Source of the DNA: an uncultured delta proteobacterium
GTDB lineage: Bacteria; Desulfobacterota; RBG-13-43-22
Assembly (NCBI GenBank): GCA_963790475.1
Contig: CAWBOS010000010.1
Coordinates: forward strand, 448,001 to 512,000
Reading direction: 5' to 3'
DNA length: 64,000 nucleotides
Part shown: positions 18,849 to 40,882 of the stretch, one piece after another
Layout of the letters: the number at the start of each line of letters is the position of its first letter
Position numbering within the stretch: the stretch's first letter is position 1
Translations under genes and position numbers: made by a program
The notes under the pieces: generated by a model
Told to the model about the DNA's origin: nothing
Database searches by the model: none
What the model saw: only the letters and a program-made list of their open reading frames with translations

Positions 18849-19285
18849 AGCTTGCACCAAGACTGCTGAAGAGCTCAGGAAGCGGTCGGTTAGCAGAGGA
18901 CAACGATGGTCAATGCCCTAGATCCGGTTATGAAAGGCGACAAAAAGATCATCCCTGAATTTTTGTGGCTGGCCTGGATGGTTTCCTGGACAGCCTGGCA
19001 GCGACACTCAAGAGATTTTTCTCCAACAAAGGACCAACAAAGGAACGGTAGGAGATAAAAAGGGGGCTTAGTCATTTCGGCTTGCCTTGAATAAGGGGCG
19101 TTATTCATAGACGGAGGAGGGGGTAGAAATATAAGAAGTCTGGTCTGTCGAAGGGGGAGGATTCTTTATGAAAACCTATTCCCGGGAGAATAATTCCAAA
19201 AAGGGAAAAAACCAAAGGGTTTTTATGTAAATTGAATTTGGCGACCTCACAAGTCCGCAAAAAACATAGTCATACGATACAACGA

Positions 19286-19910
19286 GTCGAGTAGCCCGGG
19301 GGAATTTCACCCCCAGGCCCTCACAGGTCCGGACGTGACAGTCTCCCGTCCTCCGGCTCCTATCATCCAGTTGCCTTTTATGGCGACCTTTCCTTACCTC
19401 TTGGTTCCTCCCATCGCTGGTTGACCAAAAGGCAAGGACAGATGATCCAACCCCTTCGCTCCATCCCCATTACAGAGATTTCAACACTACTACGAGTTGG
19501 TCCGTCCCTGTGCCCCGCATCGGTACTCTCATTCCTGTTGGGTCCTCCACTTGAATTTCTCCCTTATCATCGGGACGACAGGTTCCCACGTTCCACACCA
19601 GAGCCTAAATCAGGTTCGCGCCACCTTTATGCCGGATGCCGCCCAAGCAGTAAACAGGTTCCCCCTGAACTTATCCTGGAGATCAGTAAGCCCCCCAGTT
19701 TTGACATCATCCATTCATTTCGACACCTCAGAAGTAGTTCGCTTGCGCTCGCCTCCCTGATCCTTACCTGACAGGGTCGTGGCCCTGCCTCTTCCTTAAC
19801 GCCCACCACCATGGCCCTTTACCATCGCAGCTTAAGGTGGTTTGAAGCCTGCTCCTGCAAGCCGACTTCGAGGGACCTCCCCTCATCTCTTGTGCAGCTT
19901 CGTGGCACAC
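19286..19910 (-). mobile_element. ORF-less group II intron (IIB, class D-like)
   Basis: 5' end GTGTGC at 19910; domain V GAGCCGGAGGACGGGAGACTGTCACGTCCGGACC; domain VI GGGGGTGAAATTCCCC..GCTACTCGAC; no RT ORF; the joined flanks match an empty site at 33353-33369. Confidence 0.9.
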
Positions 19911-19932
19911 TTATCGATTTGAAATATGCATT

Positions 19933-19962
19933 AAAAAAGCAGGGCCAAATGACCCTGCCTTT
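19933..19962 (-). terminator. Terminator-like hairpin after the PEP-CTERM gene (also part of a family D site)
   Basis: GCAGGGTC-ATTT-GGCCCTGC-TTTTTT; homolog at 33314-33343. Confidence 0.7.
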
Positions 19963-21496: not shown

Positions 21497-21655
21497 AACG
21501 ATTATCGATTGAACTCTTGTCTTTTTTCAAAAATGAAAATCTGAAGAGTTCAGGTCAGGAAGAACCCATCAAGTTTCCTCGAAAATTACCCCAAAACCCC
21601 TAATTCAATGATTGCACCTTCTCATGTTTGCTATGTACTGGAGAATTGTGAGATG
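21497..21655 (-). repeat. Family D site, near-full unit
   Basis: TCCAG-N10-ACATGAGAAGGTGCAA-N44-GGGTTCTTCCTGA...ATTTTTGAAAAAAGACAAGAGTTCAATCGATAATCGTT. Confidence 0.7.
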
Positions 21656-30648: not shown

Positions 30649-30712
30649 GTGCTTCCTGAAGTCCTCTAAATCCAATTTTTGAAAAAAGACAAGAGTTCAA
30701 ATCGTAATCGTC
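30649..30712 (+). repeat. Family D site, partial
   Basis: 26-bp exact match (30675-30700) to the reverse complement of 21509-21534, then ATCGTAATCGTC. Confidence 0.75.
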
Positions 30713-31157
30713 GATAAAAGGGTCTTGATATTTCTTGGCCTTAGAAACGGCAAGAGATCTCAAGGCTTTCAAAAAACAAGTAGTATGCCATCGTTCTCCT
30801 AAGAGACTAACTCGATTAATCCCTAAAAAAACCTTTAGAAAAGACCTCTTCCTTCTTGCCGGGGCGATGAAGGGTTTATGAAGTTATTGACAGTCTCATG
30901 ACAAAATGTCGACCGATTTCTATTCCAAATCTTTTGACTGAGCCAAGTCCTGGGATGCTTTCCCTTGGAATTATCCGAATCCGATAAGATCAGCCAGGCC
31001 TTGGATGGATTGACCTATATCTTGTAGCGAATATAAAAAAACATACCATATGTTGAGTTTTATCTTGACTTTTTTAGATTTTAACAGTAAAAACTTTATG
31101 TGGAAAAAGTATATTGGCAACCAACGGGAAGAGCCTTTTTGAAACAGAAAAATAACC

Positions 31158-33039: not shown

Positions 33040-33232
33040 ATGATCTCATATGAATTTTACAGGAGTAACCCGGTAACAAAAATAGAAGAGTTGCTTGGAG
33101 TTCTGGAGGAAAGAAGAAAAGAATCCTTCCAGAATTACCCGGGAATCAGTCATGGGTTGGGCAGAAAAAGTTTTTGGTCAAGATGTAGGTGTTAAAGACA
33201 TTTATTTTATTCCAGTAAATATTAATAAATAG
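33040..33232 (+). pseudogene. Small hypothetical protein, frameshifted
   Basis: MISYEFY...LLGVLEERRK/fs/PSRITRESVMGWAEKVFG..IYFIPV*. Confidence 0.4.
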
Positions 33233-33313
33233 ACAAGAAATACTTGAGACCCACTCCGTTCTTCCTTACAAGCACGAGGTTAAAACGTAAATCAATATCT
33301 GGTAAGCTGGACG

Positions 33314-33409
33314 AAAGTAGGGTCAGAAATGGCCCTGCTTTTTCTATGCCCCTTCAAACGATAATCGTTAAATCTCCGAACCATTCCAGAACAAGACTTG
33401 TAGGTGTAA
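33314..33409 (+). repeat. Family D site (hairpin-core-N25-GACTTGTAGGTG); intron-free homolog of the intron target
   Basis: AGGGTCAGAAATGGCCCTGCTTTTT..ATGC...TTCAAACGATAATCGTT-N25-GACTTGTAGGTGTAA. Confidence 0.75.
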
Positions 33410-33599
33410 TTTAAGTATTGCTTATGCTTAATAAATTCGAAATTAAATGAACAACCTTCTGGAGGGAATGGCCCAGATATTGGGCTCGGTCGGAACGGGG
33501 TCGGGCCATGTTAACTGACTGATATAATATAATATGAAATCAAGTTAGGCCTTTAAAATGGGTCTATATTGAGCTTTTTATGGGCAAAAAGAGCAATAT

Positions 33600-33700
33600 A
33601 GAAAACTAATGGCTGTGGATTGAGGGATACTTGAATGCCGGGAAACAAACCCGGGAAGATGAATGGACGGGAAGCATTACTGTCGGAAGTAAAATACTTT
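33600..33700 (+). pseudogene. Possible Y1/RAYT-like transposase C-terminal fragment
   Basis: WIEGYLNAGKQTREDEWTGSITVGSK resembles the W..S.AVGS tail I associate with such transposases (recall only). Confidence 0.35.
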
Positions 33701-33770
33701 ACTTGGCTGGTCCCCAATTCCATCATCGTTAGGAGTGTGAAAGCGATTATATTTGGCAGGAGGAAATGAT

Positions 33771-34358
33771 ATGAGTCTGAATAACGAAGTCCTAAACTGC
33801 ATTCATGAACGAAGGAGTACGCGTCGATTTACTGACCAACAAATATCATCTGAACAACTGGATGCTCTGCTTGATGCCGCAATATGGGCGCCTAGCGGCG
33901 GCAACAATCAAAGTTGGTTGTTTACGGCTATTCAGAAAAAAGATGTGCTTCTCCATTTAAATGAGCTTGTTCGTGAAGGATTTCAACATTGGATTCCCGA
34001 TGACGATTACCCCGGAAAGCTAGGTATGAAGAAGCTTTCACAAAAGAAAGGCTATAACTTCTATCACAAAGCACCAACGCTCATTATTGCCTCCAATAAA
34101 CCGAATTACGAAAATGCAATGGCAGATTGCGCCCTGGCGCTCCAGAATATTTTCCTTGCGGCTCAGTCTCTGGGGTTGGGAAGTTGTTATATCAACCAAC
34201 TTCATTGGCTTCGGGATGATCCGCCTGTCCGCGCGTATCTGCTTGAATTGGGCATCCCAAAGGAGCATACGATCTGCTCTTCCGCGGCTATCGGTTTTAT
34301 AGGTAAGGAATCGACCGCGCCTATTCGTAAAGAAGGCACGATACACATTATTCGATAA
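33771..34358 (+). CDS. Nitroreductase family protein
   Basis: RRSTRRF, WAPSGGNNQSW, LAAQSLGLGSC. Confidence 0.9.
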   Translation: MSLNNEVLNCIHERRSTRRFTDQQISSEQLDALLDAAIWAPSGGNNQSWLFTAIQKKDVLLHLNELVREGFQHWIPDDDYPGKLGMKKLSQKKGYNFYHKAPTLIIASNKPNYENAMADCALALQNIFLAAQSLGLGSCYINQLHWLRDDPPVRAYLLELGIPKEHTICSSAAIGFIGKESTAPIRKEGTIHIIR

Positions 34359-34400
34359 AGTAAAGTCGTATCGGAATGGTGAGAAAAAAAAGAGCTCTCT

Positions 34401-34563
34401 TTCAATCGGAAATCATCAACTTTTTGTTCAGACTAATCCCCACATTTGTAGGTGTAAGGGGTTAATTGGGAGGAGAAGGCGATTTTTATTGTAATTTAGA
34501 GGGGTTCTTCCTGAACTCCAAAACCTCCATTATGAAAAAAATGCAAGTGTTTAAAACATAATT
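34401..34563 (+). repeat. Family D site, full unit
   Basis: TTCAATCGGAAATCATC..TTCAG-N10-ACATTTGTAGGTGTAA-N44-GGGTTCTTCCTGAACTC..TGAAAAAAATGCAAGTGTTTAAAACATAAT. Confidence 0.7.
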
Positions 34564-36181: not shown

Positions 36182-36237
36182 ATCTATCTGTAATTTTCAA
36201 TTTTTAGTCCAGCTCCCAAGCAACATTTGTAGGTGAA
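36182..36237 (+). repeat. Family D site, degenerate core
   Basis: TCCAG-N10-ACATTTGTAGGTG, same spacing as 34427-34454. Confidence 0.6.
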
Positions 36238-36702: not shown

Positions 36703-36779
36703 TGGTGCCCCCGGCGAGACTTGAACTCACGGCCTACAGATTAGGAATCTGCCGCTCTATCCACCTGAGCTACGGGGGC
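36703..36779 (-). tRNA. tRNA-Arg(CCT)
   Basis: GCCCCCG acceptor stem, anticodon loop TTCCTAA, GTTCAA T-loop, encoded CCA. Confidence 0.95.
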
Positions 36780-40803: not shown

Positions 40804-40882
40804 GGTGAGTGTAGCTCAGTTTGGTTAGAGCACCAGGTTGTGGCCCTGGGGGTCGAGGGTTCGAGTCCCTTCACTCACCCCA
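40804..40882 (+). tRNA. tRNA-His(GTG)
   Basis: G-1, GTGAGTG/CACTCAC acceptor, anticodon loop TTGTGGC, CCA. Confidence 0.95.

Follow-up and report, generated by a model that had tools for sequence, protein, structure and literature searches.

How did a group II intron that encodes no reverse transcriptase (RT) come to lie exactly inside the core of a short intergenic repeat, and can it still move? This question is raised by a 64,000-nt stretch of DNA from an uncultured delta proteobacterium (contig CAWBOS010000010.1, positions 448,001 to 512,000; hereafter the window), in which a 625-nt intron interrupts one copy of a ~65-nt repeat that we call the D element. A preliminary description of the window had suggested that the intron targets D sites in the way that some class C introns target integron attC sites, that it is mobilised in trans and that it may be inactive. 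We followed these suggestions up in the source genome (G000; 6.34 Mb in 20 contigs, 9.68% estimated contamination) and in a panel of 61 related genomes, the source genome counted in. We consider it likely that the intron is a decaying relative of the Sinorhizobium meliloti intron RmInt1 without an open reading frame (ORF), that it sits at the left box of a D element, and that its lineage spread in trans and has left the present copy as a fossil.

The intron lies on the minus strand, with GTGTGCC at its 5' end (19910) and CTACTCGAC at its 3' end (19286). These boundaries are fixed by a second full ORF-less copy in the source genome (C10:1529213-1529826), which is 96% identical and has the same termini in unrelated flanks. 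All six domains are complete. An Rfam scan of the window at gathering thresholds (cut-offs of 36 for RF01999 and 40 for RF00029) matched both families, and the hallmarks of a group II intron are present: the 5' GUGYG motif (here GUGUG), the conserved domain I architecture, the 34-nt domain V helix with its AGC triad and 2-nt bulge, and a domain VI with a bulged A. Over intron positions 9-508 the sequence shares 78% nucleotide identity with an S. meliloti intron. The claim that no RT ORF is present holds, as the only overlapping ORFs of at least 50 amino acids (aa) measure 116, 87, 61 and 61 aa.

Scripted removal of the intron joins two exons that align to 33317-33369 of the window with 43 of 55 columns identical, the exact 11-mer CGATAATCGTT included. 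The insertion thus falls precisely in the D core, as had been claimed, with empty homologous cores at 33353-33369 and 21497-21513. The window has two unsplit copies of the 11-mer, one on the minus strand (21497-21507) and one on the plus strand (33359-33369), where 0.03 are expected (100 shuffles); a longer core, TTCAA-N1-2-CGATAATCGTT, has three unsplit occurrences in the whole 6.34-Mb genome. The exon strings quoted earlier need one correction: the element being on the minus strand, they are minus-strand reads. A pre-insertion allele was not found in the 13 other genomes of the genus, where just the coaD-side flank and the intron gave matches.

The D element was defined by a profile built on nine sites, two of them after intron removal, and gave 36 nhmmer matches at E <= 0.05 in the source genome. 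The window's intron-split site scores 32.0 bits, being itself a seed of the profile. A left box, TTTCAAAC(A/G)GTAATCGTTAATTTTT, is followed by ~30 variable bases and a right box, (A/T)TT(A/G)GTAGGTGTA; a conserved terminator-like hairpin with a T-run often precedes the element. At the intron-occupied site of the window the right box has degenerated to CTTGTGAGGTC (19253-19243). By crude ORF calls, D shares its strand with the nearest ORF upstream in 32 of 36 cases and with the one downstream in only 21 of 36, which places D behind the 3' ends of genes. The D elements found in the source genome are empty except for two intron-occupied sites, and one empty site (C13:54538) shares a 17-mer with the occupied site of the second full copy. 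A second ~65-nt repeat, which we call P-type, ends in the same core; it is found at 21497-21560 (minus strand), at 30651-30714 (plus strand) and in ~10 more copies in the genome. Its sequence reads CTTCCTGAA...TTTTTGAAAAAAGACAAGAG followed by TTCAA-N-GGTAATCGT, its arms GAACTCTT and AAGAGTTC can pair, with a compensatory change (TGTACT/AGTACA) in one copy, and at some loci it follows D by ~60 nt. A relaxed-threshold Rfam scan of 33200-33760 returned only two matches (E 2.5 and 2.7), both at chance level; D accordingly corresponds to no curated RNA family.

Recognition of this site was analysed at 27 junctions, comprising ten hand-checked copies and all relatives of at least 80% identity, which give 25 distinct combinations of exon and exon-binding site 1 (EBS1). 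Pairing and D-profile counts are confined to this set; in relatives below 80% identity the 5' ends are uncertain, and below ~78% they were placed at a GTGYG close by and cannot be relied on. In the minimum free energy (MFE) fold, the EBS1 of the window intron (TTACTGA, 19689-19683) lies in the terminal loop of a CUGGGG/CUCCAG hairpin (stems 19698-19693 and 19681-19676). It stands where the preliminary description had predicted it, is complementary to the core, and forms the predicted 6 of 7 pairs with the 5' exon TCGATAA, five Watson-Crick and one G.U. Over the 25 combinations, pairing between EBS1 and intron-binding site 1 (IBS1) reaches 7/7 in 14, 6/7 in 4 (the window copy included) and at most 5/7 in 7. 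On average 5.68 of the 7 positions pair; shuffling the exons among the introns lowers this to 4.73, and 0 of 10,000 shuffles reach the observed value; the covariation also holds at positions -4 to -7 alone. Examples of matching EBS1 and IBS1 are UUACCAAU with AUUGGUAA, UUAUCAU with AUGAUAA, and UCGUUGG with UCAACGA.

The remaining contacts point the same way. A candidate EBS2 loop, AAAUGAA(U/A/G), stands opposite exon UUUCA, and in a sister lineage ACUAA stands opposite UUAGU, so that by eye EBS2 and IBS2 change together between lineages. The first base of the 3' exon, from which the one-base IBS3 is read on the exon side, is T in 21 of 25 rows. Among 10 close full-length copies the 5' exon ends in TAA in all 10 and in GTAA in nine, with TTCAA upstream in seven. 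This is IIB-type recognition, with covarying EBS1 and IBS1, and the layout is that published for RmInt1, in which IBS2 spans -13 to -9, IBS1 spans -7 to -1 and IBS3 is +1 (PMC4075523). The D core TTCAA-N-CGATAA^TCGTT (the caret marks the insertion point) is thus the homing-site sequence of the intron family, and is best read as an IBS2-IBS1^IBS3 site embedded in a larger repeat. Relatives sit at the same kind of sequence; neither related introns at unrelated sites nor an EBS1 elsewhere in the fold was found. The 5' exons of the sister lineage (..TTAGTAGGTGAWA^) equal the right box of D. Left boxes with at least 11 of 13 EBS1, EBS2 and EBS3 pairs to the window intron make up 18 of 34 D elements, against 166 of 5000 (3.3%) random 46-nt windows.

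The same covariation already contradicts recognition of D through a DNA stem-loop, as practised by class C (IIC) introns at attC sites and terminators, and we regard such a mode as scarcely credible here. A terminator-like hairpin does stand upstream of the window's site, at 33320-33340 before the empty D element that follows, and at many other D copies, and D behaves like a cassette boundary (see below); but 21-28 nt separate this hairpin from the point of insertion, whereas an IIC-like intron of the source genome sits 9 nt behind its hairpins. At those P-type sites that relatives also occupy, the terminator-like hairpin is either lacking or of another form. The EBS2/IBS2 pairing found here has no counterpart in IIC introns (PMC4075523), and neither the 625-nt ribozyme nor an RT nearest to that of RmInt1 fits this class. 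The attC analogy drawn earlier therefore fails as a mechanism and survives as a likeness of location.

The affiliation of the intron was derived from its relatives. Intron matches occur in 18 of the 61 genomes, covering several species of one genus and its family. Several relatives match positions 1-508 and 541-625 of the query with ~1.25 kb between, and this insert encodes a 430-aa protein (P0001; TIGR04416, 441.9 bits). P0001 has RVT_1 and GIIM domains only, and therefore no endonuclease (En) domain. An RT with maturase that lacks DNA-binding and endonuclease parts is one mark of class D; this can be seen in the ORF-bearing relatives only, the window copy having no ORF. The best match of P0001 in a plasmid collection is 67.6% identical and comes from an S. 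meliloti pSymA record, where three RT groups share 68%, 55% and 56% identity with it. The intron of the 56% group sits behind ...GATGAGA^ and its loop homologous to EBS1 reads UUUCGUC, which equal the IBS1 and EBS1 published for RmInt1 (PMC4075523), a IIB3/class D intron described as lacking an En domain (PMC5894124). Solved IIC, IIB and IIA RTs score 115-172 bits against P0001. The source genome itself holds eight GIIM-bearing RT ORFs in three families (436, 488 and 445 aa), all at most 39% identical to P0001, and the introns of these families show no blastn similarity to the window intron. Because P0001 is 55-68% identical to the S. meliloti groups and at most 39% to the resident RTs, we place the window intron, on sequence grounds, with the RmInt1-like class D (IIB3-type) introns and not with class C.

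Some further features of the relatives deserve mention in their own right. The closest named relative (L144 1290 in S. meliloti pSymA, CP140947.1; RT 68%) sits directly after the YADD codons of another RT gene; its EBS1, AGUCGU, pairs with exon ACGACU and is shared by Bryobacterales relatives. It looks as if this intron had homed into another retroelement's RT ORF. Introns in head-to-tail tandem, both ORF-bearing and ~640-nt ORF-less, were seen in L053 (1794-3625 and 3626-5457) and at G013:C100:1073-2878, copy two starting right at the 3' end of copy one; they could be an assembly artefact, or reflect recombination or an unusual insertion route. Two copies with 3/7 pairs each, L029 (in genome G009) and L056, combine the EBS1/EBS2 region of one lineage with a site of the other, and the mosaic domain I of L029 suggests recombination among intron copies after insertion. 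In the source genome, a 154-aa open frame at C10:2007649-2007948 is an RT fragment 51% identical to residues 71-190 of P0001, closer to the family RT than any intact RT of that genome, with D matches nearby at C10:2004455 and C10:2008777.

The positions of the features discussed so far, and of the other D-type sites of the window, are collected in the table.

Features of the intron, its insertion site and the other D-type sites in the 64,000-nt window.
Feature	Position	Strand	Evidence or remark
Group II intron without ORF, 625 nt	19286..19910	-	Rfam matches; ends same as second full copy; similarity to S. meliloti intron
Domain I, 5' part (Rfam group-II-D1D4-2, RF01999)	19766..19884	-	109.7 bits; all 118 model positions
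Domains V-VI (RF00029)	19286-19361	-	41.6 bits
Domain IV remnant hairpin, ~20 nt, where relatives carry the RT ORF	19370..19388	-	Alignment of ORF-less and ORF-bearing copies
Domain V, three deviations from family consensus	19326..19359	-	Rfam alignment; copy comparison
Domain VI, bulged A seven bases before 3' splice site	19289..19322	-	RF00029 alignment; fold
EBS1 UUACUGA (intron positions 222-228)	19683..19689	-	MFE fold; covariation with IBS1; RmInt1 loop homology
Loop AAUGAAUGG with candidate EBS2 (UGAA[U]), pairs UUCA of 5' exon UUUCA	19711..19719	-	Alignment of relatives
5' exon, D left box: IBS2 UUUCA 19924-19920, IBS1 UCGAUAA 19917-19911	19911..19924	-	
3' exon part of D: IBS3 (T at 19285), TCGTT, spacer, degenerate right box	19243..19285	-	
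Terminator-like hairpin and T-run behind PEP-CTERM gene, 21 nt upstream of insertion site	19939..19959	-	Sequence; same hairpin precedes many D copies
Upstream PEP-CTERM protein gene, 311 aa	19986..20921	-	Pfam PF07589, 29.2 bits; intron on same strand
Empty D-type core at 3' end of P-type repeat	21497..21513	-	Repeat ~21497-21560
Empty core TTCAAATCGTAA^TCGTC ending P-type repeat	30693..30714	+	
Empty D element, left-box core 33353-33369, right box ends 33406	33345..33408	+	nhmmer E 3.4e-11
Empty D element behind nitroreductase gene	34397..34456	+	nhmmer E 4.3e-06
Weak D element: clear right box, poor left box	36184..36236	+	nhmmer E 0.061

We then asked what state the window copy is in. Its domain V helix reads GAGCCGGAGGAC-GGGAGA-CUGUC-AC-GUCCGGACC, with two non-standard pairs flagged by Rfam, where the ORF-bearing relatives have GAGCUGGAUGAC...GUCCAGUUC. 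In a comparison of 12 ORF-less and 3 ORF-bearing copies it deviates at three positions: helix position 9 has G in place of U, and the two bases facing the A and G of the catalytic AGC triad are AC instead of UU. Its RF00029 score is the lowest of nine matches in the source genome, three other copies scoring 50.9-58 bits. The domain V mismatches that the preliminary description had noted are thus borne out by three deviations, and the copy is probably inactive, as had been thought possible. A cognate RT was not found in the assembly of the source genome, where the best candidate is 39% identical, besides the 154-aa fragment at 51%; present-day mobilisation is therefore unlikely. With domain V damaged and no cognate RT in the genome, the window copy is most likely an immobile fossil.

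Mobility in the past is another matter. The source genome contains eight intron-like places: two full ORF-less copies, three 5'-truncated copies (spanning query positions 225-625, 317-625 and 540-625) and three internal fragments. Two of the truncated copies keep a proper 3' splice site with TCAAT adjoining, the pattern that incomplete reverse transcription would give. Some ORF-less copies are 96-98% identical to one another. Their domain IV remnants fall into one type shared by 8 copies (in G000 and the sister genomes G004, G008 and G009), a second in 3 and a third in 1, and copies with a shared remnant occupy different sites; RT-bearing relatives occur in sister genomes. Because copies with one domain IV remnant sit at different sites, some of them 5'-truncated, past mobilisation of the ORF-less lineage in trans is plausible as judged from these comparisons. 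The earlier proposal of D targeting with mobilisation in trans accordingly stands for the homing sequence, and plausibly for the past, but hardly for the present.

Among the sequencing runs searched, the share of the sampled words present in any one run was at most 0.15, and in the four runs used, cover was almost confined to the intron and came from relatives at 90-99% identity. Two metatranscriptome libraries from wetland and soil (X3 and X6) gave contigs over 19276-19933 of the window with the flanks hardly covered; DNA carry-over is possible in both. Run X1, which may be the source sample, gave a single 151-nt contig across the 3' junction (19147-19297) without any difference. A contig joining 19911 to 19285 was found in none of the four runs, whose uncovered parts prove nothing.

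These data bear on whether the intron might still be functional, splicing and moving with an RT supplied in trans by an unassembled cognate or by one of the three resident families. Eight GIIM-bearing RT ORFs are at hand, the assembly is fragmented and contaminated, the copies resemble one another at 96-98%, and intron-like contigs appear in two metatranscriptome runs, though such libraries can hold DNA. Maturases are, however, generally specific for their own intron, and the resident RTs are too distant from P0001, and their RNAs too unlike the window intron, to fit this role well. Both bases that partner the A and G of the triad are among the domain V deviations. More than half of the D elements compared are EBS-compatible, yet the D elements found are empty at all but the two occupied sites, and one empty site carries the 17-mer of the second copy; the lack of a joined-exon contig counts weakly in the same direction. 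A functional intron thus appears improbable to us, and a decaying one remains our preferred reading.

The history that we favour would then run as follows. The lineage would have lost the RT/maturase ORF from domain IV, and the ORF-less RNA would have spread by means of the RT of full-length relatives acting in trans. Insertion would have proceeded by reverse splicing into DNA, guided by EBS2-IBS2 (about -13 to -9), EBS1-IBS1 (-7 to -1) and EBS3 with the first base of the 3' exon. The preferred site, TTTCAA-N-YRGTAA^TC, is the left box of the D repeat, which usually follows closely after a gene and its terminator; an insertion there may do no harm, and the intron could thus find a safe haven. 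In the sister lineage, EBS1 and EBS2 would have shifted to the right box. The window copy would have entered one D repeat behind the PEP-CTERM gene and accumulated its domain V damage since, leaving it with poor or no splicing and immobile.

Several observations weigh against this history. The window EBS1 is imperfect for its own site, with a C.A mismatch at position -4, and the intact cores in or near the window are all of the GATAA variant; an ectopic insertion or a later change of the site may account for this. Truly poor pairing is seen at 4 of 25 junctions: L029 and L056 (3/7 each), L069 (4/7) and the tandem copy L053_3626 (1/7). By comparison, the 2/7 of the sister-lineage copies L046 and L033 is owing to a one-base shift of the alignment register, and by eye these pair at 6/7. 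About 10 of 23 junctions outside the source genome score on the D profile, mostly weakly, so D targeting is a tendency and not a rule. The G.A pair in domain V is common to 6 of 12 ORF-less copies, which still spread, so not every domain V deviation need inactivate. The class D assignment rests on pairwise identity and shared architecture. Finally, a 20-contig assembly with this degree of contamination may lack repeats, and an RT-bearing copy could have gone unassembled.

The D element raises questions beyond the intron. A nitroreductase gene and the D that belongs to it occupy 33398-34454 of the window, and C15:11257-10201 matches this stretch at 99.8% identity; the module before it matches C10:823219-822114 and the module after it matches C13:262366 onward (C13:262366-263284). 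Neighbouring modules share 9 nt where they meet, at the right boxes of D (33398-33406 and 34446-34454). The surroundings of 28 D elements contain 38 long similarities to other loci; not one of these continues for over 10 nt on both sides of the right-box end, and in four reciprocal pairs the similarity begins or ends no farther than 10 nt from that point. The D units, the nitroreductase gene and the 300 nt that precede the gene turn up apart from one another in sister genomes, where D elements are discrete units of ~60-75 nt in otherwise unrelated contexts. Breakage of modules at D could be due to site-specific recombination, to insertion of a small element or to recombination between repeats.

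A bolder and rather doubtful reading, to which we give a small but real chance, is that D is the boundary or recombination site of an unrecognised cassette-like system of gene modules. Exchange would take place at the 9-nt right box (..TGTAGGTGT), each module would end in its own D variant, and D would serve as a landing pad for at least three intron lineages: the two class D sisters, one per box, and an IIC-like intron between the boxes. If true, this would be a non-integron parallel to the IIC-attC introns. D was also considered as an attC-like hairpin and rejected: by eye, the boxes are not complementary to each other in any conserved way, and the differences seen in the window copy and in further copies are uncompensated. 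The R''/R' cores of integron attC sites (RYYYAAC ... GTTRRRY) are not present in order in D as judged by eye, and a Pfam scan of 20 window ORFs revealed no recombinase.

The link between D and the introns might also run the other way, the introns having spread D or its boxes, for instance as co-converted exon flanks left behind after precise intron loss. The two boxes of D are the homing sites of two sister lineages with ~30 variable nucleotides between, its units are discrete in unrelated contexts of sister genomes, and remnants of mobile elements cluster nearby. Reverse splicing, however, inserts the intron RNA only, and we know of no bacterial route that scatters exon flanks to new loci. 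D is moreover conserved beyond the paired positions (TCGTTAATTTTT; hairpin and T-run), and nearly all its copies are empty. We hold this direction to be very improbable and retain D as the target of the introns rather than their product.

Other repeated elements were seen around D in the source genome. A ~2163-nt IIC-like intron with a 436-aa RT is present in two copies (L009, C10:351.3-353.5 kb; L010, C10:894.3-897.5 kb), each 9 nt behind hairpins, and one copy separates the left box of a D element from its right box. Five copies, 99.7-100% identical, exist of a ~1980-nt intron whose RT measures 488 aa (339 aa in one copy) and whose 5' exons end in ATG/CTG-YYY (L011-L015: C10:897951, C13:43927, C13:214497, C15:64419 and C15:448037); one lies 62-67 nt past a D right box, and another ~180 nt behind the 436-aa-RT intron. 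An insertion sequence (IS)-like repeat of at least 834 nt with a 613-aa ORF has 14 copies of 99.2-100% identity (L167 680-2521 at C13:46.7-48.5 kb, and 13 other loci). We discarded it as a D-specific inserter: 2 of 14 copies abut D, at 9 and ~45 nt before the left box, and with distances that differ in this way it has no precise D targeting. Downstream of D or P-type repeats, a recurring module combines a TTGACT promoter-like box, TTGGCAACCCTTAA, a mini-ORF of 3-5 codons (e.g. ATG GAA AAA TAG) and a terminator hairpin (C13:251517+, C10:244599-, C15:71945-, C12:1016489+ and C12:1019315+), and looks like a leader or attenuator. The window contains two tRNA genes, at 36706-36779 (minus strand, 66.1 bits), ~470 nt from the weak D element, and at 40805-40879 (plus strand, 65.8 bits).

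Among known systems, RmInt1 comes closest. The RT of the relatives is 56% identical to its RT and neither has an En domain; the RNAs are ~66% identical over domains I-III; EBS1 occupies the homologous terminal loop; the geometry of IBS2, IBS1 and IBS3 is the same; and both home into a multi-copy element. The window copy differs in having no ORF, a damaged domain V and an RNA 5' end ~45 nt shorter, and in its target, a non-coding intergenic repeat of ~65 nt as opposed to ISRm2011-2. ISRm2011-2 is the target of RmInt1, and both inverted repeats of ISRm17 are targets of RmInt2 (PMC5894124). RmInt2, also a class D intron of S. meliloti, is thus one intron that tolerates two sites, whereas here two sister lineages with diverged EBS1 and EBS2 use one D box each. 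According to PMC4424553, ORF-less bacterial introns are rare and usually accompanied by a related intron-encoded protein (IEP), with C.te.I1 of Clostridium tetani as an exception. The ORF-less introns of a thermophilic cyanobacterium likewise multiply in their genome, presumably via the protein of a relative in trans (PMC2882425), but related IEPs reside in the same genome (PMC4424553), while for the window intron none was found in the assembly, although sister genomes have them. C.te.I1 shares with it the lack of an ORF and a genome without a related IEP gene; it is reported to self-splice robustly (PMC4424553), whereas the window copy has a degenerate domain V at an intergenic site where splicing is not needed. 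IIC and IIC-attC introns such as S.ma.I2 resemble it in lying behind a gene and terminator, at a repeated element at module boundaries; they are described as recognising stem-loops without an EBS2 (PMC4424553), in contrast to its IIB-type pairing, larger RNA and class D-like RT. In the main texts of the literature searched we found no ORF-less class D lineage in an intergenic repeat, and no co-mention of 'group II intron' with Syntrophales, Smithella or Syntrophus.

That class D introns home into multi-copy elements is already known. For the intron family, an ORF-less class D-like lineage with at least three deletion variants offers a natural series for spread in trans followed by decay, and the covariation of EBS and IBS records drift of the target site together with a switch of target between the two boxes of a single repeat. 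Less settled is D itself, a terminator-associated element of ~65 nt at which duplicated gene modules break. Should that breakage be site-specific recombination, D would represent a novel type of cassette boundary to which retroelements are drawn.

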